Part shown: one piece after another, positions 1 to 51,834 of the stretch
How positions within the stretch are numbered: the stretch's first letter is position 1
Layout of the letters: each line of letters opens with the position of its first letter
NCBI GenBank assembly: GCA_030710605.1
Contig: CP092864.1
Location: 139,359,418 to 139,423,417, forward strand
Source of the DNA: Cordylochernes scorpioides
Taxonomy: Eukaryota
DNA length: 64,000 nucleotides
Reading direction: 5' to 3'
Notes under the pieces: generated by a model
Seen by the model: the letters and a program-made list of their open reading frames with translations, nothing else
The model's database searches: none
What the model was told of the DNA's origin: nothing
Made by a program: the position numbers and the translations under genes

Positions 1-24
1 GAGGATAAACAGCACAGCAAAACT

Positions 25-1599: not shown

Positions 1600-1740
1600 A
1601 AGATACATTTCCAGTCTTTGATTTCCAGACTTAAGTCTGGTCATCTACGGACAATGACTTTCCAGAATGGTTGCAAAGTTTTCCCACTATGTACTAAGTG
1701 CAATTCTCAACCTGCAACCCCAAAACACATTATTGACTGT
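1600..1740 (-). mobile_element. LINE-b internal fragment
   Basis: Reverse complement of the 42690-42800 block. Confidence 0.4.
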
Positions 1741-1747
1741 ATTGACT

Positions 1748-5212: not shown

Positions 5213-6468
5213 GGAGTACAAATAAGTTTTGAGGGATTTTTTTATAAATTCGAAGCTTTATTCAGAGAAATTAGTACAATATATTTCATTCAAAGTATTG
5301 TCCATCTTTAGCTACGACTTTTTCCCATCTTTCAGGCAGCATACGGATATCGTGTCGAAAAAATTCCTCGTCTTTTGAGGCGATCCAAACATTGACCCAA
5401 TTTTTCGCCTCTTCGTAAGAAGTGAAGTGCTGCTCGGCCAGGCCATGTGTCATCGAACGGAACATGTGGTATTCTGAAGGAGCAATGTCTGGTGAATACA
5501 GCGGGTGGGGTAGGACATCCCATTGAAGCGCCTCCAAAGTCTCCTTGACAACTTTTGCAACATGTGGCCGAGCGTTGTCGTGCTGATAGATCACCTTGTC
5601 ATGTCTTTTGGCATATAGTGGGCATTTAATCTTCAATGCTCGGCTTAATCGCATCAATTGTTGTTGGTAACGTTCTCCAGTGATGGTTTCGTTAGGCTGA
5701 AGTAGCTCATAGTAGATCACTCCGAGCTGATCCCACCAGATGCACAGCATTTGCTTCTTGCCATGAATATTCGGTTTGGCCGTTGAAGTTGATGCATGAC
5801 CGGGCTTAACCCACGATTTTCCGCGCTTTGGGTTGTCGTAGTGAATCCACTTTTCGTCCCCCGTCACGATTCGATGCAAAAAAACCCTTCCGATTTTGTC
5901 TTTTGAGCAGTAGTTCGCACGTGCAAATACGGCGCTCGATGTTTCCTGGCTTGAGTTCATATGTAACCCAATTTCCTTGTTTTTGCACCATACCCATGAC
6001 CTTGAGACGGTTCGAAATCGCTTGTTGAGTCACTCCCAAGGTTTCAGCGAGCTCCTCTTGAGTTTGGCTTGAATCTTCGTCCAATAAAGCCTCCAACTCA
6101 GCGTCTTCGAACTTTATTGGCCTCACTCCGCGTTCTTTGTCTCTGGTGTCAAAATTGCCACTTTTGAAACGCCGAAACCAGTACTCACATGATTTTATTG
6201 ATAGAGCATGTTTACCATATGCCTCACACAGCAATCGATGTCCATCAGTTGCACTTTTCTTCAAATTAAAACAAAAAAGCAGCGCTTCCCGCAAATTGTG
6301 TTTTGTTGGCAAAAAAGTTGACATGGTTAGAGCACCAAAAAAAAGTTCCTTACACTTGAGTAAAAGACTTCTTCTGATTTTTTTGGGGAAATGATGAAGG
6401 TCTGATGCTATTTATATAATATTTGTTGTGGCTTCTTTTGCAAATCCCTCAAAACTTATTTGTACTCC
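5213..6468 (-). mobile_element. Tc1/mariner (Mos1-like) DNA transposon, defective copy
   Basis: About 27-bp TIRs: ggagtacaaataagttttgagggattt (5213-5239) and its reverse complement (6442-6468). The internal transposase shows close similarity to Mos1. Confidence 0.85.
5286..6324 (-). pseudogene. mariner (Mos1-like) transposase, frameshifted. N-terminal HTH part is ORF 5806-6324; DDE/D part is ORF 5286-5960.
   Basis: Peptides match Mos1: 'LLFCF.LKK.A...HR.L.EA.G', 'HRIVTGDEKWI.Y.NPKR', 'WWDQ.GVIYYELL', 'HDNARPHVA', 'PHP.YSPD.APS.YH'. The two ORFs overlap in different frames, which indicates a frameshift. Confidence 0.85.
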
Positions 6469-9036: not shown

Positions 9037-9828
9037 ATCATAAAATAGTGTTCAAATGCTCTCAAGAGCCCCTTAGACTACAGTAGGTTCCCAAACACCT
9101 TCAACTTCACATCTATTTTATAATGCCCCCCCCCCCCCCCAACAAAGTCTTCTATAAGAAGAACTAATCCCCTCTAAAAGTTTTCATTGCCCACTGGAAG
9201 GTTGAACTTACCGCCCACTTTGAGATAATTCCTATCTTTTCTTGTTTCTTGGAAAGTTCCCCTCCAAGAGTTGGTTTACTACCAGACCCACAGTCCACTC
9301 CTGACACTTGGTGGGTTTGCCAGTCTGCAGGTTTAACAGGAGCCACCAAAAGGGATTTATTACAAATATCTATCTTACAGTAATTTGTGGATTTACCCTA
9401 GAATTTGATATGCTTTGGTTAATGCCTCTCCTTTTACCCCACTGAACCGAGAGACTAAAAATGCTCACTAATCTTGGAAGTTGTCATTCTTTGGAAGATC
9501 ACAACTGCATGTATATATCTTACAAACTCTTTATTTTCCTTCAATTTGTTTTCTAAGCAATCTCTGTAAAGAACACTTGGCTTATGACTTGGCATTATCT
9601 AAGTTATCCCAATTTCATACATGCTCTGCAGCTTCTCACATTCAAGTCTAGCAGCTTTAACAACACCTAGCTATGAGAATGATGTAAAACTGATCTGTAT
9701 CAGTGAAATAGAAAATGTGAATTGACAGAAGTGGAGTACTAGCATTAAAACACATTGAAACTAATGCCATATATCAACCATTATCTGAACTACACTCATG
9801 GACAATACATAAAGAAGTTGTACCTTGA

Positions 9829-10058
9829 TTAGGCACAATTTGGATTATAGATTATAAACACAAGGTAATAAGACCAAATCCAAATAAATAAATAGTGTGT
9901 GACGTTTCGGTAACAGCGTTGTTACCATCTTCAGACAAAAGTACTGAATAAGAAAATTTTACCACAGCATGTGGCTGAAAATGGTAACAACGCTGTTACC
10001 AAAACGTCAAACACTATTTATTTATTTGGATTTGGTCTTATTACTTTGTGTTTATAAT
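9829..10058. mobile_element. MITE-1 full copy
   Basis: Both arms are near-perfect. It abuts the Helitron-like element at 10062. Confidence 0.75.
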
Positions 10059-10061
10059 CTA

Positions 10062-10470
10062 CTAGCCGAATGACCCGGGCAACGCCCGTGTTTTACCCGA
10101 TTGAGTGTTTTTATTCAAATACTATTTGTTACAATTATAAATTGGCGCCTTTTATAAATGCATATGTTAGTTAATAACTATAGCCTATGTGCTTTATCTG
10201 TCTATGTACTGTTGGCTTCCGTAGGCATCTCTTAGTGGGGAAAAAGAAAGAGAGGATTCCATTTAGTTATTAACTAATATATGCATTTATTTAAGGGGCG
10301 ACCCGCTCCAACACAATAGTTACAAAACGAAATAGCGAGTGGGGGGGGGCAAAGGTGGCGTGATCGTAGCCAACCAATAGGAAAGCGCCATTCCAAAAAA
10401 AAAGCAAATGGTGACAGAGATGAAAAATTATTAAAAACGCATGACGCTCGTAACTGTATATAGAATAATC
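10062..10470 (-). mobile_element. Helitron-like element, family X
   Basis: Same termini and body as 8445-8850. CTAG at 10062-10065 is preceded by T on the complementary strand. Confidence 0.6.
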
Positions 10471-10919: not shown

Positions 10920-13339
10920 CCCTTAAGCGGTCGCAATGGGTAAAAATTACCCAGAAGGAACTTTTCGAAAATATTTCTATATTAAAAAATATATATATTT
11001 AAAATATATTCTCAGTACCTTTCTAAATCTATCTAAAGATTATTATAATAAACCTATAATTTTAATTTTATGACATATATTCATTTTATTAGCATGTTTG
11101 GGTCAATTTTACCCAGTGCGACCTTTTGAGTTCTCATCATTGGGTAATTTTTACCCAGCGCGACCTTTTAACGCTTTTGGTTTTGGTTTGCGTAATTAAG
11201 TTTCGAGTTACTTTCTGGCTTCTTGTTGTTTGGTTTTGCTGCCCCAAGTGCAATAATACAATCTATTCTTCCAACAATAAGGTAGGATTTATATTTTATT
11301 TCCTCTTTTTACATTATTTTACATAAAATGCTTTCAAATGCTGATTTTCTCCGTGATTATAATAATATTCCAAATCCCGATGATGAGGAATCAGAAACTG
11401 ATGATCATATAGAAGAGAGGAATTGGAGTACAGACACTGAACAGTATACATTATCAGAAGAAGAAAACAATGAGGATCCAAGCTTCAATTACTATATAGG
11501 AAAGGACCAAAAGACTAAATGGAAGAAAGCTCTTCCCCCAAAAAATGTTCGAACTCGCAGTGAAAATATTATCACCCATCTACCAGGGGTAAAGGGTGAA
11601 GCAAAAAATGCTAAATCGATATTAGATTGTTGGAATCTCTTTATAAATGACAATATACTTGAATGCATAGTTACAAATACTAATATTTACATTAGGAATA
11701 TTCAGCAGAACTATAGCAGAGAAAGAGATGCTAATTTGACAAACCTACAGGAAATTAAAGCTTTATTGGGAATTATTTACTTTCTTGGGGTCATGAAAGC
11801 GAATAAATTGAATGGGCAAGAGATAGTACTGGATTTGAATTGTGTAGAATAGCTATGTCTGAAAACAGATTCCGATTTCTTCTCAGAGTAATTCGTTTTG
11901 ATGACAAAGCTAAAAGAAATGAAAGACTTCGTCAAGATGAATTAGCAGCTGTGAGATTGATTCTTGATACTTTTGTAAAAAATTGCCAAAAGCATTATTC
12001 TCCTTCGGAATATATAACGGTGGATGAAAAGCTTGACGCTTTCAGAGGGAAATGCAATTTCAGGCAGTATATTCCGAGTAAACACAATAAATATGGAATA
12101 AAATTATTTGCTCTCGTGGATTCAAAAATGTTTTATACTTGTAACTTGGAGATTTATTCAGGAAAAAACCCTGAAGGTCCTTACAATGTCAGCAACAGTC
12201 CAAGTGACGTTGTGGAACGATTGTGTGAGCCAATCAAGGGAACTGGCCGCAATGTAACAATGGATAACTGGTTCACCAGTTATTCTTTAGCTCTAAAACC
12301 TTTACAACAATTTTGACTAACAATTGTTGGTACCTTAAAAAGAAATAAAAAGGAAATCCCCTCAGAGTTTGTCATCAGCAGAGGTAGAAATGTACACACT
12401 AGTGTTTTTGGCTTTCAAAGTGAAATGACACTTCTTTCATACAAGCCTAAAGAGAATAAAGTTGTACTTATGCTTTCAACTCTGCACCACGATGCAAATA
12501 TAGATGATTCAACGGGAGAATTGAAAAAGCCAGAGATGATAATGTTTTATAATATGACAAAGGGTGGTGTAGATATGATGGACGAAATGACAGCTACATA
12601 TAACTGTGCTAGAAATTCAAGAAGATGACCCATGGTTATTTTTTATTCACTTTTAAATATTGGGGCAATAAATTCCCAGATAATTCATTTTGCAAATGGC
12701 AACGCATCAAAGGTTAAATCAAGACGTCATTTTTTAAAAACCTTATCCTTAGATCTTATTGAAGTGATGGTCAAAGTTCGCACAGTAAACGGAAGAATAC
12801 CATGTGAAATAAAGGAAAAGGCATCCGATATTTCTAATTTGTTAGAGCCTGGTCCATCTAAAAAGCCAAAAATAGGAAAAAGACATCGATGCAAGAAATG
12901 CCAGAAAGAAAAAAAGGACAAAAACTATTCAACATTGCCAGTACTGTTTTGCTTTTTTGTGTAAGGAACACTCTGTAATAATTTGTCAAGAATGTCATAA
13001 AGGACGAAACAAGTCCTAATTTCTATGAAAGGAAGTGATAACTTTCATACAAATTTATATTTTATAACCTATCTTCAATATATATTTTTATTTTCATAAA
13101 ATAGTCGAATATATCATAAATATTTGATATTTTGATTTGTTATTAATAAAATAAATAAAATATGATTTTTATATCTCAAAATTTTATGTAAAGTTATTTA
13201 ATAGACAAATCATTATTCTAACATAGAAAACAATAAAAATATTGAAAAGAATATTTGATTTATTTAGGTTTTTAAAAGTGGGTAAATTTTACCCACCGCG
13301 ACCTTTCAAGGTATAAAAGAGGGCGCGACCGCTGCCGGG
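10920..13339 (+). mobile_element. piggyBac-superfamily DNA transposon (family 1), near full length but decayed
   Basis: Flanked by TTAA (10916-10919 and 13340-13343). Termini are cccttaagcggtcgc… and …gcgaccgctgccggg (TIR ccc..agcggtcgc). Subterminal repeats 'gggtaaa(a)ttttacccag.gcgacctttt' occur at 10940, 11100-11170 and 13275. Confidence 0.8.
11328..13018 (+). pseudogene. piggyBac transposase (DDD domain plus C-terminal Cys-rich domain), broken into 4 ORFs
   Basis: Peptides 'FRFLLRVIRFDD', 'VDEKLDAFRGKCNFRQYIPSKHNKYGIKLFALVD', 'NVTMDNWFTS', 'MFYNMTKGGVDMMD', and the C-terminal 'RCKKCQKEKKDK…CQYCFAFLCKEHSVIICQECHKG' CRD. The ORFs sit in different frames. Confidence 0.85.
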
Positions 13340-13365
13340 TTAAAGAATCATACGTGTCGATAAGG

Positions 13366-13700
13366 CACAATTTGGATTATAGATTATAAACACAAGGTAA
13401 TAAGACCTAATACAAATAAATAAATAGTGTGTGACGTTTCGGTAACAGCGTTGTTACCATCTTCAGACAAAAGTACTGAATCATATATATCAGAAATGGA
13501 AATTTGCACATCACATACTTTGAGGACTATTAGAAGATCATCTTTTGACCATTTTCTATGACTGTCCTAACTCTACACAGAAGTGAGATTGTTTGATTCA
13601 GTACTTTTGTACTAAGATGGTAACAACGCTGTTACCGAAACGTCACACACTATTTATTTATTTGGATTTAGGTCTTATTACCTTGTGTTTATAATCATAC
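13366..13700. mobile_element. MITE-1 full copy with a ~120-bp internal insert shared with 18445-18545
   Basis: Both arms are intact. The internal 'atcagaaatggaaatttgcacatcacatactttgaggactattag…' also occurs at 18448. Confidence 0.7.
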
Positions 13701-13934: not shown

Positions 13935-14079
13935 TCTATCAACAAAGATTCAGATTAAGCTGGAGTTTAAAATTAATAGCTTGATTATTTTAGACCTTTT
14001 ATTACCCACCCTATGTATTAGTTCCGCTCTGTGTATCTGAGCTTATACTATTGGTTATTACGAAAATGATAACGCACAA

Positions 14080-14285
14080 TTTGGATTATAGATTATAATA
14101 AAAGAAAATAAGACCTAATCCAAATAATTTATTAGTGTGTGACGTTTCAGCAACAACATTGTCACCATCATCAGACAAAAGAATAAATGTTGAATAAAAT
14201 TTGTCTGATGATGGTGACAATGTTGTTGCCGAAACGTCACACACTAATAAATTATTTGGATTAGGTCTTATTTTCTATTATTATT
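14080..14285. mobile_element. MITE-1 (divergent subfamily 'taataagacctaatccaaataatttattagtgtgtgacgtttc.gcaacaa.attgtcaccatcatcagacaaaagaat')
   Basis: Perfect foldback with both arms. Confidence 0.7.
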
Positions 14286-18595: not shown

Positions 18596-18951
18596 CTTCT
18601 TCTTCTTTCTTATCTCCACTCAATCATATCAGGTTATCAAGCTTGTAGAGCTTGAAACTTGACAACCACCATGACTGGGTGAAGTAGAATGCGTCTGCCT
18701 TTGTCATTAAGACTGGGAGCACTACTCAGTGGCAGGCCGACTTAGCTCCAAAAGAAATGGCCGCCTCTGACATGAGGAACAGACGCCATGTGCAGCCGCT
18801 CCTAACATGGAGTACAAACGCTGCTCATCCTGTATCCCTGGATTAGGAGCCCTTACAGGGTACTATCAGCCGGACCAGCTGAACCCAGGTTTTTTAGTGA
18901 GCTTGTTACTGCTCCCCCTCCTCCTTTTTCATCCGGGCTTGGGACCGGCAA
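18596..18951 (-). mobile_element. SINE-1 full copy
   Basis: Same consensus as 25-392. It ends 'ccgggcttgggaccggcaa' at 18951. Confidence 0.7.
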
Positions 18952-19864: not shown

Positions 19865-20625
19865 AAAATGTATCCACCTAAAACCGGTACAATTTCACAT
19901 TTGTACTATTTTTTCACATTAAAGAAGTGTTGTTCTCAAAGGGAGGTCTGAAATAGGTAATTTTTTTTTGTTGCTTATCCCAAGTACACGTGGTACAGGC
20001 CATGATAATCATGGTGGGTAGAAGTACCTAAACCCAGTACAATTTCACATTTGTACTATTTTTTTCACATTAAAGAAGTGTTGTTCTCAAAGGGAGGTCT
20101 GAAATAGGTAGTTTTTTTTTTGCTTATTCCTAGTACACGTGGTACAGGCCATGATAATCATGGTGGGTAGAAGTACCTAAACCCAGTACAATTTCACAAT
20201 TGTACTATTTTTTTCACATTAAAGAAGTGTTGTTCTCAAAGGGTGGTCTGAAATAGGTAGTTTTTTTTTGCTTATTCCTAGTACACGTGGTACAGGCCAT
20301 GATAATCATGGTGGGTAGAAGTACCTAAACCCAGTGCAATTTCACATTTGTACTATTTTTTTCACATTAAAGAAGTGTTGTTCTCAAAGGGAGGCCTGAA
20401 ATAGGTAGTTTTTTTTTGCTTATTCCTAGTACACGTGGTACAGGCCATGATAATCATGGTGGGTAGAAGTACCTAAACCCAGTACAATTTCACATTTGTA
20501 CTATTTTTTCACATTAAAGAAGTGTTGTTCTCAAAGGGTGGTCTGAAATAGGTAGTTTTTTTTTTGCTTATTCCTAGTACACGTGGTACAGGCCATGATA
20601 ATCATGGTGGGTAGAAGTAGGCGAA
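19865..20625. repeat. Satellite, ~127-bp unit × 6, derived from a SINE-2 3' end plus flanking sequence
   Basis: Each unit contains the reverse complement of 'ctacccaccatgattatcatggcctgtaccacgtgtactagg' and 'gggataagcaaaaaaaa'. Confidence 0.85.
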
Positions 20626-21520: not shown

Positions 21521-21904
21521 ATGTTGAGTAACTTATAAATAACTCTAGGACTTAGAGATAGTTGTTCCATCCTGTTAGATTTCACCTCCTGTGCTCAATT
21601 CTACTCTCATCCTCTCTCTCTCTCTCTTGAGTTGGGTAATGTCAGCCATCACATCGACCTGCCCACTCTGTGGGAAAGAACTCTCGCAGTCCATCGGTGG
21701 TAGAGTCTTTCTCGCGGTGGGCGCCACCAATGAAGACCTTGAATATATATATGTATATTTATCAATTATTGTATCTATTCATATCTATTTATTCATATAT
21801 CTATCATTATTAATCTTATTTATTCATTTTATGTATTTAAACTTATATAATCTTATATGGACACTTTGAAATAAAAAACAGTTCAATCAATCTCTCTCTC
21901 TTAG

Positions 21905-22232
21905 TTAGAAAAAGGAGGAGGGGGAGCAGTAACAAGCTCACTAAAAAACCTGGGCTCAGCTGGCCCAGCTGATAGTACCCTGTTAGGGCTCCTAATCCAG
22001 GGATACAGGATGAGCAGCATTTGTACTCCATGTTAGGAGCAGCTGCACATAGCGTTTGTTCCTCATGTCAGAAGCGGCCATTTCTTTTGAAGATAAGTCA
22101 GCCTACCACTGAGTAGTGCTCCCATTCTTAATGACAAAGGCAGACGCATTCTACTTCACACAGTCATGATGGTTGTCAAACAAGCTTGATACCCTAATAT
22201 GATTGAGTGGAGATAAGAAAGAAGAAGAAGAG
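21905..22232 (+). mobile_element. SINE-1 copy (+)
   Basis: aaaaaggaggagggggagcagtaacaagctcactaaaaaacctgggctcagctggcc … gattgagtggagataagaaagaagaagaag. Confidence 0.7.
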
Positions 22233-22323
22233 ATCATTATGCTACTTCCCCTCGCAGTAAGGACAGTTGAAGTTTGTTTTATATTTTAAAGAAACATTTG
22301 TTCTTTAATGCCTTCATTTCTTA

Positions 22324-22503
22324 TACAGTAGAACCTCCATGAGAGGACACTCCTGCTAGAGGACACCTCTCTACAAAGGACAGTTTTCATTGTCAAAATT
22401 ACCATCTTTTCTATTTAGAAACTCTCCGGTAAGAGGACACCTCTCCCTAAAGGACACTTAGGCTCTGAAATTAGGTGTCCTTTACAGGGAGGTTCTACTG
22501 TAT
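22324..22503. mobile_element. MITE-2 full copy
   Basis: atacagtagaacctccatgagaggacactcctgctagaggacacctctctacaaaggacag… through …ctttacagggaggttctactgtat. Confidence 0.7.
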
Positions 22504-22575
22504 ATAGATGGCACATTATCGGCTTATAAATAATTATACTACTTCTTGAGCTAGGTCCATTACAGATGATACATT

Positions 22576-22885
22576 ATCTTCTTCTTCTTTCTTATCTCCA
22601 CACTGGGTGAAGTAGAATGCGTCTGCCTTTGTCATTAAGACTGGGAGCACTACTCAGTGGCAGACCGACTTAGCTCCAAAATAAATGGCCGCCTCTGACA
22701 TGAGGAACAGACACCATGTGCAGCCGCTCCTAACATGGAGTACAAACGCTGCTCATCCTGTATTTCTGGATTAGAAGCCTTTACAGGGTAATATCAGCCG
22801 GGCCAGCTGAGCCCAGGTTTTTTAGTGAGCTTGTTACTGCTCCCCCTCCTCCTTTTTCATCCGGGCTTGTGACCGGCAAGGGCGG
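22576..22885 (-). mobile_element. SINE-1 copy with an internal/tail deletion
   Basis: tcttcttctttcttatctccacac|tgggtgaagtagaatgcg… It lacks the 'tcaatcatattagggtatcaag…' segment. Confidence 0.65.
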
Positions 22886-22894
22886 AGTTATGAT

Positions 22895-23120: not shown

Positions 23121-23194
23121 ATACAGTAGAACTTCTATAAGAAGACCCCCTGTCTACAAAGGACAGTTTTACCTATTATTGTACTTCTTCTTCT

Positions 23195-23815
23195 TCTTCT
23201 TTCTCATCTCCACTCAACAATCATATTAGGGTATCAAGCCTTTAGAGCTTGAGAGGTTTGATGGTATCTACTGAGTAGATCTCATCATCAGCCTGGTGAT
23301 CTGAAGATAGAAAATAACAACAAAATCTACTCCACTTGCACAAAATGTAACTTGTCACCTGCAGCTCCAGAACACATTTTGGCTTGCATTGGATGTACCA
23401 AACAGGACCTTTGGGAGAGGCCTCTGCTTATGATCAAACAGCTCGAGGAGCATGAACTCATGGAATTCGTGTAATTTTTACACAAGGGGATAAGAAACAC
23501 AGATCTCATCGAAAGAAATTTGACTTTCATAATGATCGGGTGAAGTAGAATGCATCTGCTTTTGTCAAAAGGACTGGAAGCACTACTCAGTAGCAGGCTG
23601 ACTTAGCTCCAATATGAAATGGCCACCTCTGACATGAGGAACAGATGCCATGTACAGCCGCTCTAACATGGAGTACAGACTCATCCTATATACCTGGATC
23701 AGGAGCCCATACAGGGTACTATCAGCCAGGCCAGCTGAGCCCAGGTTTTTTAGCGAGCTTGTTACTGCTCCCCCTCCTCCTTTTTCATCCGGGCTTGGGA
23801 CAGGCAAAGACGGAA
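23195..23815 (-). mobile_element. SINE-1 copy split by a LINE-a 3' fragment at 23300-23530
   Basis: SINE tail part at 23195-23290, SINE body at 23530-23815, LINE-a coding 3' end between them. Confidence 0.55.
23300..23535 (+). mobile_element. LINE-a 3' end (ORF2 C-terminal CCHC zinc knuckle plus 3' UTR)
   Basis: Translates to 'CTKCNLSPAAPEHILACIGCTKQDLWERPLLMIKQLEEHELMEFV*' (C-x2-C-x9-H-x3-C) and then 'tttttacacaaggggataagaaac'. There are 8 such fragments in the window. Confidence 0.55.
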
Positions 23816-23939
23816 TTAATTATACCTATGAAACAATTTAATAGGGGCTAACTAATATTTTGTTAATGAGAATGGCCTGTGAAGAGAGTCCTGTCATGGT
23901 ATTAAGGAATGTTGCAAGCAAAGAGGGAAGGTAGATTTT

Positions 23940-24253
23940 AACTGTCTTCTTCTTCTTTCTTATCTCCACACTGGGTGAAGTAGAATGCGTCTGCCTTTGT
24001 CATTAAGACTGGGAGCACTACTCAGTGGCAGGCCGACTTAGCTCCAAAAAAAAAATGGCCGCCTCTGACATGAGGAACAGATGCCATGTGCAGCCGCTCC
24101 TAACATGGAGTACAAACGCTGCTCATCCTGTATCCCTGGATCAGGAGCCCTTACAGGGTACTATCAGCCGGGCCAGCTGAACCCAGGTTTTTTTAGTGAG
24201 CTTGTTACTGCTCCCCCTCCTCCTTTTTCATCCGGGCTTGGGACCGGCAAAGG
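23940..24253 (-). mobile_element. SINE-1 copy, short-tail variant
   Basis: Same deletion variant as 22576-22885. Confidence 0.65.
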
Positions 24254-24284
24254 CGAAAGTAGATTTTAACTGTAAGTTTTGCCA

Positions 24285-26469: not shown

Positions 26470-26565
26470 TTCTATGCATGTTGGAGCTCGAAGAGCATGA
26501 ACTCATGGAGAATTTGTGTTATCTTCAAACAAGGGGATAAGAAACATGGTTCACATCGTTATAGC
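26470..26565 (+). mobile_element. LINE-a 3' fragment
   Basis: …ggagctcgaagagcatgaactcatggagaatttgtgttatcttcaaacaaggggataagaaac. Confidence 0.5.
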
Positions 26566-26756: not shown

Positions 26757-27072
26757 CTTCTTCTTCTTCTTTCTTATCTCCACACTGGGTGAAGTAGAAT
26801 GTGTCTGCCTTTGTCATTAAGACTGGGAGCACTACTCAGTGGCAGGCCGACTTAGCTCCAAAAGAAATGGCCGCCTCTGACATGAGGAACAGACGCCATA
26901 TGCAGCTGCTCCTAACATGGAGTACAAACACTGCTCATCCTTTATCCCTGGATTAGGAGCCCTTACAGGGTACTATCAGCCGGGCCAGCTGAGCCCAGGT
27001 TTTTTAGTGAGCTTGTTACTGCTCCCCCTCCTCCTTTTTCATCTGGGCTTGGGACCGGCAAAGGCGGAGTTA
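26757..27072 (-). mobile_element. SINE-1 copy, short-tail variant
   Basis: tcttcttcttctttcttatctccacactgggtgaag… through …gggaccggcaaaggcggagtta. Confidence 0.65.
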
Positions 27073-27763
27073 ATACAAAGTAATAACGCGTCACTATATA
27101 TAACGAATGAAGACATTATTTAAATGTAATTCTACTATCCTAAAAGCTTATATCCATAGTTTGCTTAAATACCATTTCTAAGATTCCACCCTTCAGCGCA
27201 GCATATAAAAGCAAAATGATCCAATACAGTATTGGTGCTCTAAAGAAGCGGTCTGGTAGATTAAAAAAAAAAAAAATTGGCAAAATCACTAGGAGGGTTC
27301 ACCACTGATGAGCCAAGCTCTCCTAATATTTTTCATCGCAGTAAGGACAGTAAAAGTTTGATTTATGTATGAAAAGAAACATTTGCATCTTAATGTCTTC
27401 AAGAGAATAAATGATCATTATAAAGCATCAATGCCACAAAATCTTGATTTTTTAGATGAAAAGTCAAACCCTAGAACAAATACGCCATTGGACATCATGT
27501 TGACATCAGCAGCTGTAGATTCCTCCATTGTACAAGCCGGCCCAACTTGATACAGCAAATGTCTGACAACAACCTCAGGTAGGGAAGTTGAATCAGGAGG
27601 AAGGAGCGTGGAGACAATGGAGGTGTTGGTTGGGTCAGCTCCCCCATACCAATTAAGAATTTCATCACAGAGTTGAAATACTTCCTCCCACATATCATTA
27701 TTTTTGGTGGTGGTGGTGGTCATTGAATCACACTTCTTTCTTCCCCTTCCCCCTTTAAGGAAT

Positions 27764-29046: not shown

Positions 29047-29372
29047 TTGTGTTGGGGGGGGGGGGGTCAGTGGAAGGCTGGTTAAACCGTTTGGTTTTCG
29101 ACCACTACGACCCGGGTTCGATTCCCGCATTGGACACTTTTTTCTGTTTAAAAAAAAAAAAATGCTCCAATGGCCCCCCCGATTCTTGCAAAAGTCCAAC
29201 CCCACCAGCGAGTGCAAGTAACCAAACGGGGCTCTGGCACATTTGTAAGTGCAAAGTCGAACTGCTTTTCACATGTGTAGACATGTGGTGCGCTTACAGT
29301 AAAAAGCAGTCGCTAACTACCCACCATGATTATCATGGCCTGTACCACGTGTACTAGGGATAAGCAAAAAAA
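29047..29372 (+). mobile_element. SINE-2 full copy (tRNA-like head plus body plus 'gggataagcaaaaaaaa' tail)
   Basis: The head 'gggtcagtggaaggctggttaaaccgtttggttttcgaccactacgacccgGGTTCGATTCCcgcattgg' has box-B-like GGTTCGATTCC, which indicates tRNA derivation. The tail is poly-A. Confidence 0.7.
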
Positions 29373-29509
29373 ATTGTGTTGGGAAAAAAATGACGCTTTT
29401 CAATCTCATTCGTCTCTTTTGAGTTATTATATAGAAGTTATTTTGAGAGATGCAGGAAAAGAATCATGGAAGTAATACATTTATTTGGAAGAGCAGATAG
29501 TCTTCTTCT

Positions 29510-29872
29510 TCTTCTTTCTTATCTCCACTCAATCATATTAGGGTATCAAGTTGTGACCCTTGATGGTATTTGACAACCATCATGTCTGGGTGAAGTAGGA
29601 TGCGTCTGCCTTTGTCATTAAGACTGGGAGCACTACTCAGTGGCAGGCCGACTTAGCTCCGAAAGAAATGGCCGCCTCAGTCATGAGGAACAGACGCCAT
29701 GTGCAGCCGCTCCTAACAAGGAGTACAAACGCTGCTCATCCTGTATCCCTGGATTAGGAGCCCTTACAGGGTACTATCAGCCGGGCCAGCTGAACCCAGG
29801 TTTTTTAGTGAGCTTGTTACTGCTCTCCCTCCTCCTTTTTCATCCGGGCTTGGGACCGGCAAAGGCGGAGTT
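29510..29872 (-). mobile_element. SINE-1 full copy
   Basis: Consensus match along the full length. Confidence 0.7.
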
Positions 29873-30059
29873 AGAGCAGATAGTAGAGTGTGGTAACAGT
29901 GGTTTGGTCTTGATGATGGAGATCTCCTTGTAGTGAAGCCACTGAGGTTGTTGAGAGGATCTTCTTACATGTTCACACCATTGCCCACACTGGGATGTTG
30001 TCCCTGAGTCAACAGCCTAGTCACAAATATATTTCTCTGTCTCTATGATAAACATGATA

Positions 30060-30365
30060 GACCCCCCCTAGTACACATGGTCCAGGCTATGATAATCATC
30101 TTCTTCTTCTTTCTTATCTCCACTCAATCACACTAAGGTATCAAGCTTGTAAAGCTTGAGATATGATAATCATGTTGGGTAGTAGTTGGCAACTGCTTTT
30201 ACTGTAAGTGTACCACATGTCTATACATGGGAAAAGCAGTTTGACTTTTGCGCTTATAAGTATGCTGGAATCCCGTTTGGTTACTTACACTTGCTGGTGG
30301 AGTTGGACTGTACAAGAATCAGGGGCCATTGGAGCATATTTTTTTTTATCAGAAAAAAGTTCTCA
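30060..30365 (-). mobile_element. SINE-2 copy carrying an inserted SINE-1 tail fragment (30090-30160)
   Basis: Reverse complement of the SINE-2 3' region, interrupted by 'cttcttcttctttcttatctccactcaatcacactaaggtatcaagc…'. Confidence 0.55.
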
Positions 30366-30419
30366 ATGCAAGATTCTCATGGAATATTATAGTTACTACG
30401 TATATAACATCTCTATGAT

Positions 30420-30545
30420 AAGGTACAATTTGGATTATAGATTAGAAACATATGTAACTAAAGTACTTTTGTCTGATGATGGTAACAATGCTGTTACCGA
30501 AACGTCACACACTATTTATTTGGATTTGGCCTTTTTACCTATGTT
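30420..30545. mobile_element. MITE-1 partial copy
   Basis: ggtacaatttggattatagattagaaacatatgtaact…ctgatgatggtaacaatgctgttaccgaaacgtcacacactatttatttggatttggcc. Confidence 0.55.
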
Positions 30546-30774
30546 TCAAACCCTCAAATAAATAAAGAGCCCGTATATAAAGGTAATATTCTGAGGAAAA
30601 CAAAATTAACAAGTCTGTTGATTAAAGCTTCCTGTTGCAACATCATGCTCTCTTCCTGACTCCAGTTTATCTGTGCTGTGGTTTCCATCTCAAGTTTTAC
30701 AAATTGATGAGACACAAGAGTTTCCATTTCCCCCATTGTTGCTTACATTCAACTGGATAGAAACTCCACCTTTG

Positions 30775-31165
30775 CTGGTCCCAAGCCCAGATCAAAAAGG
30801 AGGAAGGGGAGCAGTAACAAACCCACTAAAAAACCTGGACTCAGCTGGCCCGGTTGATAGTGCCCTGTAAGGGCTCCTGATCTAGGGATACAGGATGAGC
30901 AGTGTCTGTACTCCATGTTAGGAGCGGCTATATCCTGTATCCCTGGATCAAAAGCCCTTACAAGGTACAGGATGAGCAGCGTCTGTACTCCATGTTAAGA
31001 ACAGTTATACTTTGCGTCTGTTCCTCAAATCAGAGGTGGCCATTTCATATTGGAGCTAAGTCAGCCAACTAATAAGTAGTGCTCCCAGTCTTAATGACAA
31101 AGGCAGACACAATATAGCTTGATACCCTAATATGATTGTTGAGTGGATAAGAAGGAAGAAGTACA
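30775..31165 (+). mobile_element. SINE-1 copy with an internal ~60-bp duplication (30900-30990)
   Basis: 'ggatacaggatgagcag.gtctgtactccatgttag' occurs twice. Confidence 0.6.
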
Positions 31166-31589: not shown

Positions 31590-32280
31590 AACAGTCACCT
31601 ACTTTTATCCACCGTGATTATCATGGCCTGTACCATATTTGTGTGTATTAGGGATAATAATAAAAAATAGTAATAACTGAAATGGGCATGTGTCAAAATA
31701 AGCAGTCGCCAACTACCCACCATGATTATCATGGCCACATGTACTATGGATAATAATAAAAAATAGTAATAACTGAAATGGGCATGTGTCAAAATAAGCA
31801 GTCGCCAACTACCCACCATGATTATCATGGCCACATGTACTATGGATAATAAGAAAAATAGTAATAACTGAAATGGGCATGTGTCAAAATAAGCAGTCGC
31901 CAACTACCCACCATGATTATCATGGCCACATGTACTATGGATAATAAGAAAAATAGTAATAACTGAAATGGGCATGTGTCAAAATAAGCAGTCGCCAACT
32001 TCCCACCATGATTATCATGGCCACATGTACTATGGATAATAAGAAAAATAGTAATAACTGAAATGGGCATGTGTCAAAATAAGCAGTCGCCAACTACCCA
32101 CCATGATTATCATGGCCACATGTACTATGGATAATAAGAAAAATAGTAATAACTGAAATGGGCATGTGTCAAAATAAGCAGTCGCCAACTTCCCACCATG
32201 ATTATCATGGCCTGTACCACATGTACTATGGATAATAAGAAAAATAAAATAACTGAAATGGGCATGTGTCAAAATAAATA
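31590..32280. repeat. Satellite, ~121-bp unit × ~5.5, derived from the SINE-2 3' region
   Basis: Unit 'aaaaatagtaataactgaaatgggcatgtgtcaaaataagcagtcgccaactacccaccatgattatcatggccacatgtactatggataataag'. It causes the spurious overlapping ORFs at 31595-32272. Confidence 0.85.
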
Positions 32281-32496
32281 GTCGCCAATTATTTGTAGAA
32301 GGAGCATGGGAATATCAGAACCTTGTGGCACATGGTTTGCCATGGATCAAGAAATGCCAGGATGCTCAATCACCTCACAATGCTCTGAAGATTTTACCAT
32401 ACACAAAAAGAGAAATCGAATTTCAAAATCTCAAAAGAGATGAAATAATCTCAATAGAACTAGGCATATATCAATTTGTTTCAAGTCTCCCTGTAA

Positions 32497-32699: not shown

Positions 32700-33050
32700 T
32701 TTTACAAATTTTTAAACACAAGGTAATAAGACCAAATCCAAATAAATAAATAGTGTGTGACGTTTCGGTAACAGCGTTGTTACCATCTTCAGACAAAAGT
32801 GCTGAATGAGAAAAAATATCATAGCATGTTTTAAATAGTTACTGTTATCAAGTGAATATATTACACATGATATATTTACTTATATACACTTATATTCACT
32901 TGATAACAGTAACTATTTAAAACATGCTGCGATATTTTTTCTCATTCAGTACTTTTGTCTGAAGATGGTAGCAATTCTGTTACCAAAATGTCACACACTA
33001 TTCATTTATTTGGATTTGGTCTTTTATTACCTTGTGTTTATAAATTTATA
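32700..33050. mobile_element. MITE-1 full copy with a ~150-bp palindromic internal insert (32815-32945)
   Basis: Arms are at 32705-32810 and 32945-33045. The internal 'atcatagcatgttttaaatagttactgttatcaagtgaatata…' is itself a palindrome. Confidence 0.7.
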
Positions 33051-33530: not shown

Positions 33531-34152
33531 TTTGTATCAGACGAATCCCACTGGGTGTCGTCTGGTTCAATGTCACATTCTGCCTTGAAGTCGGACAGGT
33601 CTAGATCGGAGTCCTTGTCCCCGACATGGGCGATTGCCATGTCAAGGAATTTCTTCAGAGTAGAACTCTGCTCGGACGAGAGAAACTCGAGAGAGAGAGA
33701 TTGACACAAAAGTTTAAATTATTAACATACAAAGTGTGTGACTGCTAGAATGGAAATAATGATAGAGGAAAACCATTGTCTCTTTGTCACACCATCCATT
33801 TCCCTAAGAAGTTATAAAATAATTATGGCCGAATAAAATTGGACAATATATTTTTATTGAATTTGACTTTCTTTTAATAAATGCTTAGAGCCTAAAAGTT
33901 TCTGTTTGTGGAAACTGAAGTTTCCTAAATTTGCTGCCTTTAAGGACACCACAATATATTACAGTATAATCTCTTTAATTCAAAATTTACCTTAATTCAA
34001 CACTTACTTTAGTTCAATCATTTTTTTATTTTTCAAATTGCAATCAGCCTATTTACTTTAGTTTAACCACCTATAATTAAATACCAACTTTAATTCAACT
34101 ATTTTTCTTAGTCCCAATCAGCCTATTTAGTTTAATTCAACCACTCAACACT

Positions 34153-34408
34153 TGCCGGTCCCAAGCCCGGATGAAGAAGGAGGAGGGAGAGCAGTAACAA
34201 GCTCGCTAAAAAACCTGGGCTCAGCTGGCCCAGCTGATAGTACTTTGTAAGGGCTCCTAATCCAGGGATACAGGATAAGCAGCGTTTGTACTCCATGTTA
34301 GGAGCGGCAGCTTCACTTGGCGTATGTTCCTCATGTCAGAGGTGGCCATTTCTTTTGGAGCTAAGTCGGCAATTTCACCCAATCATGAAGTTAAGAAAGA
34401 AGAAGAAG
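34153..34408 (+). mobile_element. SINE-1 copy, internally deleted, adjacent to the minisatellite
   Basis: The head 'ttgccggtcccaagcccggatgaagaaggaggagggagagcagtaac…' runs to 'gaagttaagaaagaagaagaag'. Confidence 0.6.
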
Positions 34409-35529: not shown

Positions 35530-35835
35530 ACTAGCCGAATGACCCGGGCAACGCCCGGGTTTTACCCGATTAAATACTTTTATTCAAATACTATTCGTTA
35601 CAATTATAAATTGGCGCCGTGGATGTCATTCTTGTATAATATATAAATGAGTTTTAAAAATTGTAAAAAAATGCATCGGCCGGGAATTGAACCCGGACTG
35701 CCCTCGTGGCAGGCAAGCATTCTACCACTGAACCACCGATGGTTATGAGAAATGGCCATATTTGGGTATTTATTCCATTCACAAAGCAAACGGTGACAGA
35801 ATTGATTAAGAAAGAATTGATTATGACGCTGATAA
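35530..35835 (-). mobile_element. Helitron-like element, tRNA-Gly-carrying variant
   Basis: CTAGccgaatgacccgggcaacgcccgggttttacccgatt terminus at 35530. The internal family-X segment is replaced by '…ggcgccgtggatgtcattcttgtataatatataaatgagttttaaaaattgtaaaaaaa' plus the tRNA-Gly-like copy. It then rejoins 'caaacggtgacagaattgatta…gacgctgataactgtatat'. Confidence 0.55.
35672..35743 (-). pseudogene. tRNA-Gly(GCC)-like copy inside a Helitron-like element, acceptor stem degenerate
   Basis: Reverse complement is accatcggtggttcagtggtagaatgcttgcctGCCacgagggcagtccgggttcaattcccggccgatgca. The 5' end CCATCGG fails to pair with the 3' end at position 1. Confidence 0.55.
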
Positions 35836-36232: not shown

Positions 36233-37098
36233 GAGCAATCCATACTTAATTCATTAGATAATAAATGGCATATATTGGATTTAATAAAATATTTATTTTG
36301 CCAATATTTCGGCTGGCTGAACGCCAACCTTTATCGAGGCATTACATTTTTGTATACACAAACTCAGCGCCGCATAGTGTTATAATATCACAGTTGAAAT
36401 CAATTAAAATACAGAGTAGGTGGAAGAAAATTTGTGTATGAAAAAATTATTATAAAAAATGCAATCAAAAATGTAAAATATCTTAAAATATAAAAGGAAA
36501 AAAAGTTCTATCTTATATTTAAAAAATTGTAATAAGTACATAAAATAATTCATTAATAACTCATAAAGAGATAAATGTAAAAATGTGTGTATCTATTAAA
36601 ACATTTGAAAATAAATTTTAAATGATTTAAACAATAAACTGTAAGAACCTTATAAAAAGTTTTTAAATACCCACATTTTTAAAAACTTTTTATAAGGTTC
36701 TTACAGTTTATTGTTTAAATCATTTAAAATTTATTTTCAAATGTTTTAATAGATACACACATTTTTACATTTATCTCTTTATGAGTTATTAATGAATTAT
36801 TTTATGTACTTATTACAATTTTTTAAATATAAGATAGAACTTTTTTTCCTTTTATATTTTAAGATATTTTACATTTTTGATTGCATTTTTTATAATAATT
36901 TTTTCATACACAAATTTTCTTCCACCTACTCTGTATTTTAATTGATTTCAACTGTGATATTATAACACTATGCGGCGCTGAGTTTGTGTATACAAAAATG
37001 TAATGCCTCGATAAAGGTTGGCGTTCAGCCAGCCGAAATATTGGCAAAATAAATATTTTATTAAATCCAATATATGCCATTTATTATCTAATATATAT
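36233..37098. repeat. Giant near-perfect palindrome (about 430-bp arms, about 9-nt centre 'tacccacat' at about 36672)
   Basis: I checked the right arm against the reverse complement of the left arm at several points (36300-36660 vs 36680-37040). The left arm at 36210-36400 is homologous to 46205-46400. Confidence 0.8.
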
Positions 37099-37099
37099 A

Positions 37100-37437
37100 T
37101 ATATTAAAAATAAAAAAGGCATCTCCTGACCACGAGCACATGTGCTTTTTATAAATTTGGCCTTAAATACCCATTTTCTGATTTCTCAGGAAGCCATTGG
37201 GACCAAAAATCTTTTTTGGTCGCAGTTGTTACAGCCTTCTCCACGCTGACGAGCGCCAACAGCGCGAAACGCGTTCGTGGATGGCTTTTCTTGATAAATC
37301 AAGAAATTGGGTTGGCCAAATATCACGGAGCAAGCTAAATAAACGTTTAGTTTATTTTTGCTCCACTAGATGGCGCTCTGCCATCTAAAAAGCACATGTG
37401 CTCGTGGTCAGGAGATGCCTTTTTTATTTTTAATATC
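37100..37437. mobile_element. TIR-MITE (~50-bp TIR 'atattaaaaataaaaaaggcatctcctgaccacgagcacatgtgcttttt')
   Basis: The TIRs at 37100-37150 and 37388-37437 are reverse complements. Related 'aggcatctcctgat…' ends occur at 52885-52960, 55610-55680, 59340-59400 and 59790-59880. Confidence 0.65.
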
Positions 37438-37785: not shown

Positions 37786-37830
37786 TCTATATTCTAGCCA
37801 TAGATTAATCTATATTCTAGCCATAGATTA

Positions 37831-38075
37831 AGACTGGGAGCACCACTCAGTGGCAGGCCGACTTGGCTCCAAAAGAAATGGCCGCATCTGACATGAGGAA
37901 CAGACGCCTTGTGAAGCCTCTCCTAACATGGAGTATAGACCCATCCTGTATCCCTGGATCAGGAGCCATTACAGGGTACTATCAGCCAAGCCAGCTGTGC
38001 CCAGGTTTTTAGCAAGCTTGTTACTTACTGCTCCCCCTCCTCCTTTTTCATCCGGGCTCAGGACTGGTAAAGGCA
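37831..38075 (-). mobile_element. SINE-1 copy lacking the 3' tail part
   Basis: It starts within 'agactgggagcaccactcagtggcaggccgact…'. Confidence 0.6.
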
Positions 38076-38224
38076 GAGTTATATATTATACTAGATGGGT
38101 GACCCGGGCTTCGCCCCGGGATTGACCTGTGTGCATATCTACCCGAGTGATATATATTTAGATAAGATTTTTTTTTATAATTGTTTGTTATTAGCATTAT
38201 CTATTTATTTGCATCAGAATAATT

Positions 38225-40671: not shown

Positions 40672-40968
40672 GTAGAGGGGGTCGGTTGAAGGCTCGTTAA
40701 ACCGTTTGGTTTTCGACCACAAGGACCCGGGTTCGATTCCCGCATTGGGCACTTTTTCTGATAAAAAAAAAAAAAATGCTCCAATGGCCCCCGATTCTTG
40801 CAAAAGTCCAACCCCACCAGTGAGTGCAAGTAACCAAACGGGGCTCTGGCACATTTGTAAGTGCAAAGTCGAACTGCTTTTCACATTACAGTAAAAGCAG
40901 TCACTAACTACCCACCATGATTATCATGGCCTGTACCACGTGTACTAGGAATAAGCAAAAAAAAAAAA
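40672..40968 (+). mobile_element. SINE-2 full copy nested inside a MITE
   Basis: Head 'ggggtcggttgaaggctcgttaaaccgtttggttttcgaccacaaggacccgggttcgattcccgcattggg', tail 'ctaggaataagcaaaaaaaaaaaa'. Confidence 0.7.
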
Positions 40969-41639: not shown

Positions 41640-42330
41640 TACTAGCGGACGTACCCGGCTTCGCCCGGGTAAAACCCGAGTAAAGGTTTGTCTAACGAAT
41701 CTCTCGATAAAGTGAACATTTTTTCCCGGTCCCTTGAAAAATACTCGATAAGTTGAATAAAATCAATATTAATTGGTTCTCTCGGTAATTGGAAGTTAAA
41801 AGAATAGTATCTTGCCTTGGAATTGTATCATTATTCTTGTATGGATGTACCTGGCTTCGCCCGGGTTTTACCCGAGTAAAGGTTTGTCTAACGAATTTCT
41901 CGATAAAGTGAACATTTTTTCCCGGTCCCTTTAAAAATACTTGATAAGTTGAATAAAATCAATATTAATTGGTTCCCTCGGTAATTGGAAGTTAAAAGAA
42001 TAGTATCTTGCCTTGAAATTGTATCATTATTCTTGTCTCAAATAAATTGCCGTGTCATCCTGAATTTTGACTTTCCTAATTTTCTACATTACAAAATCAT
42101 CGTATCATCATGATAATATTTAGAGCAGATTGTTGAATTATAACAGATAAATTAAAATATTTATCTTGATTATTTTTAGGCGAAAAGTTATTTCAAAAAT
42201 TTTATTTGCTAGAAACCTTCCCAGTACTATACTCAATAACTTCCCAAAGTTTCATGGCGTTCCAATGAGTGGTTTGGTCAGGCATAAAGGACACACACAC
42301 ATACATTCATTTTTATATATATAGATTTAC
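41640..42330 (-). mobile_element. Helitron-like element, family A (2 internal tandem units)
   Basis: CTAGcggacgtacccggcttcgcccgggtaaaacccgag… through …cacacatacattcatttttatatatatag. Colinear with 673-1590. Confidence 0.55.
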
Positions 42331-42606: not shown

Positions 42607-42668
42607 TCCTCTTCTTCTTTCTTATCTCCACTCAACAATCATATTAGGGTATCAAGTTTGTAGAGCTT
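42607..42668 (-). mobile_element. SINE-1 3'-tail fragment
   Basis: tcttcttctttcttatctccactcaacaatcatattagggtatcaagtttgtagagcttg. Confidence 0.5.
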
Positions 42669-42669
42669 G

Positions 42670-43430
42670 TTGATGTGGTTGATGTGGTTTGGGGTTGCAG
42701 GCTGAGAATTGCACTTAGTACACAGTGGGAAAACCTTGCAATCATTCTGGAAAGTCATTGTCTGTAGATGAGCAGACTTAAGTCTGGAAATCAAGGACTG
42801 TTGTTCTCTTGGGAGGACAGAATTGGTGCTTGTCCCTCCTGCTCTGTACCAGTCATGTGAAGCAGTAGATTTCCAGTTTGGGACTTGAGCTAATTAGGAT
42901 TGATATTCTGCTTTCCCAGCAAATGCCATTTAATGGGGATTTTCAGAATGATTTTCAGATGGGAATTTCAGAAGCTTTTTAAAAAGAATTAAAGCAGTGG
43001 AAGACTCGAGTTGTTTTTTGTGGACATGAGGAACAAACCTCAATACATCTTTTACTAGATTGCCCTGTTTTTCCAGACTATAGAATCAACAATAATTTAA
43101 TAGTAACAGATGTAAGTATTTTTATTTCCAGTAAAGAAATGTATATTAAATTTAATACCTTTGTAGATATATTTTAAATTATATAGCAACAAATATCTTT
43201 TAAGAAACTGATCATTTATATTATGTTGATTGTACATATTGCCAGACACTTCTTTCTTTTGTACACAGTTCTTTTTTCTCGTTTTTTTACTCTCTTTCTC
43301 ATTGTTAACATCATTTGACTATTGTATTCTCGGCCTAAAATTATTGTATATATATGTATACACAAATGTAAAGACATACATGTATGACAGCGCAAGTGTC
43401 CGTAGGGGGACATAGCGCTTTAAATTGAAA
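42670..43430 (+). mobile_element. LINE-b 3' region (second non-LTR family)
   Basis: It contains '…FCGHEEQTSIHLLLDCPVF…' (zinc-knuckle-like) and a 3' UTR ending 'gtgtccgtagggggacatagcgctttaaattgaaataaaat'. Homologous blocks are at 48185-48680, 44995-45160, 1600-1740 (-) and 24285-24560 (-). Confidence 0.45.
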
Positions 43431-45160: not shown

Positions 45161-45164
45161 AGCT

Positions 45165-51813: not shown

Positions 51814-51834
51814 ATAATTTTTCTCCAAAATCGA

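Follow-up and report, generated by a model that had tools for sequence, protein, structure and literature searches.

A short retroelement of a pseudoscorpion with a predicted twister ribozyme at its 5' end and a LINE-type 3' end

Retroelement families with a common 3' box

We analysed a stretch of 64,000 nucleotides (nt) from the pseudoscorpion Cordylochernes scorpioides (contig CP092864.1, positions 139,359,418 to 139,423,417), referred to below as the window, and in particular SINE-1, a family of short elements which combines a twister-like 5' end with a 3' end resembling that of a long interspersed element (LINE). The window contains 64% A+T, 43% of it is self-matching, and peptides translated from its repeats match C. 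scorpioides proteins at 84-98% identity. It is a mosaic of retroelement fragments and DNA transposons. A preliminary description had noted that two families of short interspersed elements (SINEs), SINE-1 and SINE-2, end in the same 3' box as a LINE, and this was borne out: the box, GGRGATAAGMAA, has 17 matches in the window against 0.09 expected from shuffled sequences, always directly 5' of a 3' repeat tail. These 17 matches are family copies, and independent events amount to three or four families. Only the AAG or AAC run 3' of the box is a microsatellite, the box itself is not. The individual ends had also been read correctly: the SINE-1 copy then cited finishes gagtGGAGATAAGAAAG(AAG)n at 22209-22233, the LINE-a ends at 23486(+), 60045(-) and 63780(-) close with acacaaGGGGATAAGAAAC(AAC)n, and the SINE-2 ends at 29359 and 57942 with ctaGGGATAAGC(A)n. 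Sharing of a tail between SINEs and LINEs is textbook knowledge and ordinary by itself.

The LINE 3' ends, at first merged into one family, belong to two, LINE-a and LINE-b. The second open reading frame (ORF2) of LINE-a has the C-terminus YPTCTKCNLSPAAPEHILACIGCTKQDLWERPLLMIKQLEEHELMEFV and finishes EEHELMEFV, with its stop codon 11 nt 5' of GGGGATAAGAAAC(AAC)n. That of LINE-b reads FPLCTKC..P.HIIDCI.SSIDELYSSPADTI..LKLYKLDTLI up to a stop codon located 6-9 nt 5' of the box, and is followed by ttgagtGGAGATAAGAAAG(AAG)n. Eight LINE-a 3' ends are present in the window, in agreement with the first estimate of about eight, but only three of them are long enough to encode the cysteine/histidine (CCHC) knuckle that all had been credited with. 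The spacing of this knuckle is C-x2-C-x8-H-x3-C and not C-x2-C-x9-H-x3-C as initially given. Among the three, 23299-23499(+) runs through the knuckle and EEHELMEFV into tttttacacaaGGGGATAAGAAACAC, 61597-61950(-) is the longest LINE-a end in the window and is degenerate, and 51826-51975 resumes at 52314-52350 after a SINE-1 copy which interrupts its 3' untranslated region (UTR). The other LINE-a ends lie at 60042-60148(-) and 63777-63886(-), both finishing GGGGATAAGAAAC(AAC)4, at 26485-26546(+) and 61456-61535(+), which are short, the latter finishing AAGGATAAGAAAC, and at 61124-61229(+), where the box is mutated to GGGGATAAAAAAC.

Ends in GGAGATAAGAAAG(AAG)n that lack a SINE-1 body were found at four places. 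Those at 42607-42900(-) (ORF2 C-terminus, CCHC knuckle, stop codon and ttgttgagtGGAGATAAGAAAG(AAG)n), 45040-45249(+) (FPLCTKC..PNHIIDCINSSIDELYSSPADTINKLYKLDTLI, stop codon and ttcagtGGAGATAAGAAAG(AAG)n) and 1612-1746(+) (an ORF2 C-terminal fragment with 98% amino acid identity to the C. scorpioides protein P0151) encode the LINE-b knuckle, and the one at 30100-30162(-) is a 63-nt tail fragment of either LINE-b or SINE-1. From 'CI' to the stop codon the C-termini of LINE-a and LINE-b both count 29 residues, and a C-terminal domain profile of 86 related C-termini scored LINE-a at 86 bits and LINE-b at 67 bits. The two are paralogous families with homologous ORF2 C-termini, which is why they have the box in common.

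An exhaustive HMMER search recovered full-length relatives of LINE-a. The LINE-a proteins P0013 and P0004 carry an apurinic endonuclease-type domain (APE; PF03372/PF14529, Exo_endo_phos), a reverse transcriptase (RT; PF00078, RVT_1) and an RNase H domain (PF00075, RNase_H), followed by the C-terminal domain, while in the LINE-b proteins P0050 and P0151 the RNase H domain and the LINE-b C-terminus were seen and no other domain. An RNase H domain in ORF2 is characteristic of the LINEs grouped as I, Nimb, LOA, Ingi and Tad; to our knowledge the RTE, CR1 and L2 clades, to one of which the preliminary description had expected the LINE to belong, have an ORF2 without it. The presence of RNase H in LINE-a and LINE-b therefore leaves these three clades unsupported. 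Judged by domain content rather than by RT phylogeny, both families would belong to an I-superfamily-like lineage with the order APE-RT-RNase H-CCHC. A sequence search of the PDB allowed no clade to be assigned to LINE-a, nor to the LINE of contig L001 described below.

SINE-1 occupies 15 loci, which show 84-95% identity to the cited copy; it is 330-385 nt long and has no ORF. Alignment of the copies showed that the element reaches ~30 nt upstream of the start of the cited copy and begins AACTCCGCCTTTGCCGGTCCCAAGCCCGGATGAAAAAGGAGGAGGGGGAG. The cited copy itself occupies 21908-22236(+): it is truncated, running from consensus nt 32 without the 5' half of the twister, and positions 21888-21907 of the span first assigned to it (21888-22255) are flank. 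Its tail is of medium length and LINE-b-derived, with the box at 22209-22221 and (AAG)n to ~22233. Target site duplications (TSDs) of 7-13 nt were found for 8 copies. Three copies are full-length, namely 22578-22889(-; TSD ATAATGTATCAT, the start AACTCCGCC following directly) and 26760-27071(-; TSD CTTTGTATTA), which have short tails, and 29505-29872(-; TSD TATCTGCTCT), which has a long one. Together with 23946-24255(-; TSD AGTTAAAATCTAC) and 60457-60770(+), which starts AAACTCC with one extra A, the first two form a short-tail subfamily of four copies, in which a common deletion leaves only GTGGAGATAAGAAAG(AAG)n; TSDs are clean in three of the four. Long tails are also carried by 23-385(-), which has lost ~4 nt at its 5' end (TSD TTTTGCT), by 18596-18951(-), 5'-truncated by ~10 nt (TSD TATAAACA), by 53103-53409(-), whose 5' part is deleted, and by the 5'-truncated copy at 43921-44165(-), where the LINE-b-type tail is full and long. 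The longest LINE-b-derived tail (~100 nt or more, from GATGAGaTCTACTCA on) is that of 23185-23830(-). The remaining loci are a rearranged copy with an internal inverted duplication (30762-31161(+)), a 3'-truncated copy followed by a 32-bp tandem array (34152-34370(+)), a 3'-truncated and mutated one (37827-38080(-)), and a copy 5'-truncated from nt 22 which sits in the LINE-a 3' UTR mentioned above (51978-52310(+); TSD ATTTAA). Conversely, the copy at 23185-23830 is interrupted at ~23285-23502 by a 5'-truncated LINE-a (TSD AGATCTCATC). This reciprocal nesting indicates that LINE-a and SINE-1 had overlapping periods of activity.

We then compared the 3' ends over the last ~65 nt. Long-form SINE-1 is identical to two LINE-b copies at 58/63 and 58/62 positions (92-94%), whereas with LINE-a only the 12-nt box aligns without heavy gapping. 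The SINE-1 tail holds the last ~16 codons of LINE-b ORF2, ending DTIKNLKLYKLDTLI and a stop codon as do P0050 and P0151, and in the copy at 23185-23830 the homology extends over ~100 nt or more. SINE-1 always carries GGAGATAAGAAAG and (AAG)n like LINE-b, and never (AAC)n. A common tail in the usual sense, that is 3' homology reaching beyond the simple repeat, was found for SINE-1 and LINE-b only; SINE-1 and LINE-a, and SINE-2 and either LINE, have nothing but the box in common. The preliminary description had named LINE-a as the common partner, its RT moving both SINE-1 and SINE-2 through a GG.GATAAG box. In its favour, the box stands directly 5' of the tail in all three families, and if box and repeat are enough, as the short SINE-1 subfamily may indicate, cross-mobilisation by LINE-a is conceivable. 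We nevertheless regard this partnership as unlikely, given the LINE-b character of the SINE-1 tail in both its repeat and the 62-63 nt before it, and a SINE-2 tail made of poly(A) without further homology. For SINE-1 the general idea of trans-mobilisation by a LINE holds, but with another partner. TSDs and 5' truncations are footprints of LINE-mediated retroposition, and the comparison partly supports SINE-1 being a non-autonomous element with a LINE-b 3' end, mobilised in trans by LINE-b.

The short subfamily transposed with a 3' end reduced to box and repeat. This is the best evidence that the window offers for the box being the functional part of the tail, and box plus (AAG)n seem sufficient as a 3' signal. 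Hairpins recognised by eye near the 3' ends (TTGTGTAAtctTTACACAA in LINE-a, TCAAGCTTtacAAGCTTGA in LINE-b) were also considered as essential signals and were discarded, the short subfamily having transposed without the LINE-b hairpin.

The 5' end of SINE-1

One SINE-1 copy was scanned against Rfam at a permissive threshold, and its first ~50 nt matched a type-P1 twister ribozyme with 43.3 bits and E = 1.7e-8. In the window this model (RF03160) has 11 matches, all located at SINE-1 5' ends, the best with 49.3 bits and E = 5.8e-8 for the whole window. They include 22840-22894, which extends 5 nt into the 5' flank of the copy at 22578-22889, and 27022-27076, 29823-29876, 24214-24265, 60452-60506, 30757-30811, 34129-34191 and 38031-38085 in the corresponding copies. 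The consensus and the best copies contain all conserved core nucleotides (the cleavage-site AA, GCC, CCGGUCCCAAGCCCGG of P4/L4, GGAGGG), and the helices P2 (CUCC/GGAG) and P4 (CCGG/CCGG) are intact, with L4 reading UCCCAAGC. The cut made by twisters falls on the N-A step immediately before the conserved AA (PMC8501958). Full-length SINE-1 copies start with AACUCCGCC, which is the predicted cleavage product, and (A)AAC forms the start of the element in seven copies. Those whose 5' ends lie at 22889, 27071, 29872 and 24255 have a clear TSD that stops exactly where cleavage is predicted, with AAC as the start of the element; two further copies start AAAC. From its likeness to known twisters, the SINE-1 ribozyme would be expected to cut itself at this N-A step. 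A scan of metagenomes for the twister core found the same core and the same P2 (tttAACTCCGCCGATGCCGGTCCCAAGCCCGGATGAAAAAGGAGGAGGG) at 401-434 of a 1190-bp contig (L002, JAAUXV010324525.1), followed by sequence unrelated to SINE-1 and with no ORF context; closely similar twisters therefore exist in at least one other eukaryote.

A clue to the origin of the head came when its twister part was translated and used as a peptide query: the hits were an exonised SINE-1 (P0194) and a 32-residue product (P0195) from an unrelated public assembly. The 2.7-kb contig that encodes P0195, L001 (run ERR13948500), is 82-91% identical to SINE-1 nt 1-115 along its nt 335-447 (113 nt). Its twister occupies positions 323-377, and ~430 nt further on comes an ORF with APE and RT domains (809-2698); the 3' end of this LINE lies beyond the contig. 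By this comparison the SINE-1 head, including the stretch resembling A and B boxes discussed below, is a 5' UTR module of an APE/RT LINE.

Infernal (one copy, E <= 10) found no tRNA, 5S, 7SL or small nuclear RNA match in the SINE-1 head, and ARAGORN found no match either. Without a head derived from an RNA polymerase III (pol III) transcript, SINE-1 is not a SINE in the strict sense, and the earlier view of two unrelated SINE families holds as regards their unrelatedness, but not as regards the class of SINE-1. We consider it probable that SINE-1 is a non-autonomous retroelement of the non-LTR (long terminal repeat) type, composed of a twister head and a LINE-b tail and mobilised by LINE-b, and not a pol III SINE.

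Several observations weigh against this interpretation. None of the 11 twister matches reaches the Rfam gathering score of 67.2 bits, the best having 49.3; most of the gap is due to the lack of the optional P3 and to the 5' strand of P1, which falls in flanking DNA and is unpaired. In addition, nt ~70-125 hold strings, TGGGCTCAGCTGG and GGCTCCTAATCC, which by eye bear a loose likeness to an A box and a B box. Both facts could be read as signs of an ordinary, tRNA-derived pol III SINE whose similarity to a twister is incidental or the relic of a dead ribozyme. This alternative strikes us as very improbable: no tRNA was detected in SINE-1 by the two programs cited above, a type-2 promoter at +70 would place the start of transcription near +60, while full-length copies start at +1 beside the TSD, the box-like stretch is itself part of a LINE 5' UTR module, and a conserved TTTCTTTT run lies mid-element. 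As to the LINE partner, the RTs of LINE-a and of the L001 LINE are no more than 31% identical, and the head and the tail of SINE-1 may come from different LINEs. A frameshift-tolerant comparison of the SINE-1 body with the 5' region through which gene models read in LINE-a proteins yielded a weak, collinear similarity (57 versus 32 ± 5.4, reached by 1/200 shuffles). By tblastn, the body scored 19.2 bits in a test against the LINE-a 5' end for a 5' UTR origin, a value matched by 5/300 shuffles; its sub-regions were weak and not significant against the LINE-a 5' region (3/100 shuffles for nt 0-125, 16/100 for nt 120-290), and neither was the L001 5' UTR significant. Finally, a tblastn search of the window with full-length LINE proteins returned C-terminal fragments only and no LINE 5' end inside the 64 kb; the window holds no full-length LINE-a or LINE-b, and a twister on LINE-b, as well as the activity of this family, is hypothetical.

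SINE-1 consists of three modules, LINE-related or unique. The first (nt 1 to ~50) is a predicted type-P1 twister without the optional P3 and with no fixed P1 5' strand. The second (nt ~50-115) is the conserved stretch that also follows the twister in the 5' UTR of the L001 LINE, and it precedes a family-specific body. The third (the last 13 to ~100 nt) is a LINE-b 3' end, made of the last ORF2 codons, a 6-nt UTR, the box GGAGATAAGAAAG and (AAG)n. We propose the following cycle for SINE-1. Transcription would read through from upstream sequence, and the twister, as its homology and the 5' ends of the copies suggest, would cut between N-1 and A+1 to leave an RNA starting with AACUCCGCC. The LINE-b ORF2 protein (APE-RT-RNase H-CCHC) would recognise the box and (AAG)n in trans, and the RNA would be copied by target-primed reverse transcription, of which the 7-13 nt TSDs and the occasional 5' truncations are the footprints. 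The new upstream flank would then provide N-1 together with a P1 strand of random sequence, something that twisters tolerate. High-throughput testing has found P1 dispensable for twister cleavage (PMC11662667), and because P1 is not needed a working ribozyme could be regained after each insertion.

SINE-2 and other repeats of the window

SINE-2 opens with a tRNA-like head (T-arm and perfect B box), contains a linker rich in A and ends in poly(A). The full-length copy at 29062-29374(+) carries the B box GGGTTCGATTCCC, ends ctaGGGATAAGC(A)8 and is flanked by the TSD TTGTGTTGGG; another copy with a head (40677-40964(+)) has the tail AGGAATAAGC(A)n, a 5'-truncated one (57841-57956(+)) has GGGATAAGC(A)n, and a further copy (1750-2033) lies beside the LINE-b fragment at 1612-1746. 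The 63-nt LINE-b or SINE-1 tail fragment described above is nested in a SINE-2 copy (30040-30470; TSD TGATTATCAT). Tandem arrays made from the SINE-2 3' end, including its GGAATAAGC(A)n tail, occupy 19876-20619 and 31644-32288, with units of 148 bp (x5) and 95 bp (x6.7).

At the DNA level SINE-2 has only GGGATAAG(C)AA in common with LINE-a and LINE-b (8-11 nt). It is quite possible, although we lean slightly to the opposite view, that the SINE-2 box is functional and that the mover is a LINE of the RNase H group, be it a third family with the 3' end GGGATAAGC(A)n, or LINE-a or LINE-b with relaxed recognition of the tail. Indeed GGGATAAG stands directly 5' of the tail as in LINE-a, 10/11 positions match, we estimate from base composition that an anchored 8-mer would agree by chance with a probability of ~1e-5 per comparison, and SINE-2 TSDs, 8-10 nt long, are like those of SINE-1. 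Against such a role, the window contains no LINE with a GGGATAAGC(A)n end, the profile of 86 LINE C-termini detects no homology at the coding level in the 3' region of SINE-2 (<= 2.9 bits), the box is degenerate in several copies, which vary between AGGAATAAGC, AAGGATAAGT and GGGATAATAA, and a poly(A) tail fits other types of LINE equally well.

Other repeats were also found in the window. An abundant family resembling miniature inverted-repeat transposable elements, with long terminal inverted repeats, is present at 9825-10467, 13356-13700, 14066-14284, 30433-30550, 32706-33050, 53003-53089, 54961-55175 and 58885-59237. Each of its arms holds CTGATGATGGTAACAATGCTGTTACCGAAACGTCAC, in which a likeness to a hammerhead core (CUGAUGA, stem, GAAAC, GUC) can be made out by eye; cmscan of the arms at E <= 1 returned no hammerhead and only microRNA-like hairpin matches, and the likeness may be a coincidence. 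A single match to the hammerhead model HH9 lies at 37230-37295(+); it scored 28 bits, short of the gathering score (52), with E = 3e-5 for 251 nt searched. Its core reads CUGAcGAG...CGAAAC and its helix III is very short, and it comes shortly after an inverted duplication of 840 bp (36253-37092, with 99% identity to its own reverse). A near-perfect palindrome of ~108 nt at 28393-28500 matches mir-629 with 62 bits, below the gathering score and equally on both strands, and is probably a small inverted-repeat element.

Three tRNA-Gly(GCC) genes (35672-35742(-), 50896-50966(+) and 58074-58144(-); 45-60 bits) have an identical upstream flank of ~45 nt (aataaatacccaaatatggccattt...), a T-run and the same downstream sequence, and look like a dispersed tRNA gene repeat unit. 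Degenerate DNA transposons occupy 5286-6324(-), 46577-47294(+) and 11328-12964(+), two of the mariner/Mos1 type (PF01359, HTH_48) and one of the piggyBac type (PF13843, E = 1e-40). A 197-bp tandem repeat recurs at two distant sites, 682-1270 (3 units) and 41647-42036 (2 units), and a further repeat family (cagtagaacctccatgagaggacac...) has ~10 copies in the window, including 22320-22508 and 63940-64000.

Comparison with known systems

Eukaryotic twisters have so far been assigned a single biological role, the 5' processing of one flatworm LINE (PMC8501958), and arachnid twisters come from bulk predictions, without known context (PMC11662667). The flatworm element is Perere-3 of Schistosoma mansoni, a LINE of the RTE clade, which carries twister variants at its 5' end, with TSDs beside the AA (Liu et al. 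2021, PMC8501958); the number of As varies, the P1 strand is supplied by the target, and 5' processing by the twister was argued from these features (PMC8501958). SINE-1 resembles Perere-3 in having a type-P1 twister match without conserved P1 at its extreme 5' end, a TSD that abuts the cleavage-site AA, a varying number of initial As (AAC or AAAC), a short tandem repeat as 3' tail and no evident promoter of its own. It differs in its length of 330-385 nt, in the lack of an ORF and in its arachnid host; its cleavage is predicted from sequence alone, and its 3' end would come from an RNase H-bearing, I-superfamily-like LINE and not from an RTE element.

Our full-text literature search found no account of twisters carried by short non-autonomous elements, nor of any tied to LINEs with RNase H or to retroelements of arachnids. 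SINE-1 would represent a second, independent setting in which a twister is associated with a retroelement, with an arachnid host, a short passenger devoid of ORF and an RNase H-bearing LINE as partner. Its short subfamily amounts to a natural deletion series, which narrows the 3' recognition signal to ~13 nt and (AAG)n. More speculatively, the twister and the adjacent ~65 nt might form a portable 5'-processing cassette of arachnids, present in distant LINEs (L001, LINE-a/b) and captured by short elements; we find this rather doubtful. If it were true, many unexplained arthropod twisters would mostly be 5' ends of retrotransposons, and the 3' requirement of a passenger RNA would be limited to a 13-nt box and a trinucleotide repeat.

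Pairs with a common 3' tail reportedly include UnaSINE1 and UnaL2 of the eel, and the Pol III SINE and CR1 of the tortoise. Like the members of such pairs, SINE-1 has its 3' end in common with a 'stringent' LINE ending in a tandem repeat, and it shows TSDs and 5' truncation; unlike them, it has no tRNA, 5S or 7SL head, and SINE-2, which has such a head, has only 8-11 nt in common with a LINE. In the Drosophila I factor, ORF2 encodes APE, RT and RNase H and, C-terminal to them, a Cys/His motif. The predicted ORF2 layout of LINE-a and LINE-b is similar, with APE-RT-RNase H and C-terminal Cys/His, and these families also end in a 3' trinucleotide repeat, although this repeat is AAC or AAG after a conserved GGRGATAAGAAA box and the likeness is one of domains, not of phylogeny. 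For the I factor, a member of the I clade, the 3' (UAA)n is needed for precise initiation of reverse transcription, as related in a passage of PMC8501958.

Close parallels in overall design are the R2 SIDEs and the NARTc and SIDER elements related to L1Tc/ingi, non-autonomous elements that keep the 5' ribozyme of the parent LINE, similar to that of hepatitis delta virus (HDV), together with its 3' end (PMC3414825, PMC3185411, PMC4035085). The predicted ribozyme of SINE-1 is a twister and not HDV-like, its insertion is not site-specific, and its head and tail may stem from different LINEs. Like the SIDEs and NARTc, SINE-1 joins a 5' ribozyme predicted to cleave itself, a short body and the 3' recognition end of a LINE, and as they are mobilised in trans by a LINE protein, so, we propose, would SINE-1 be.

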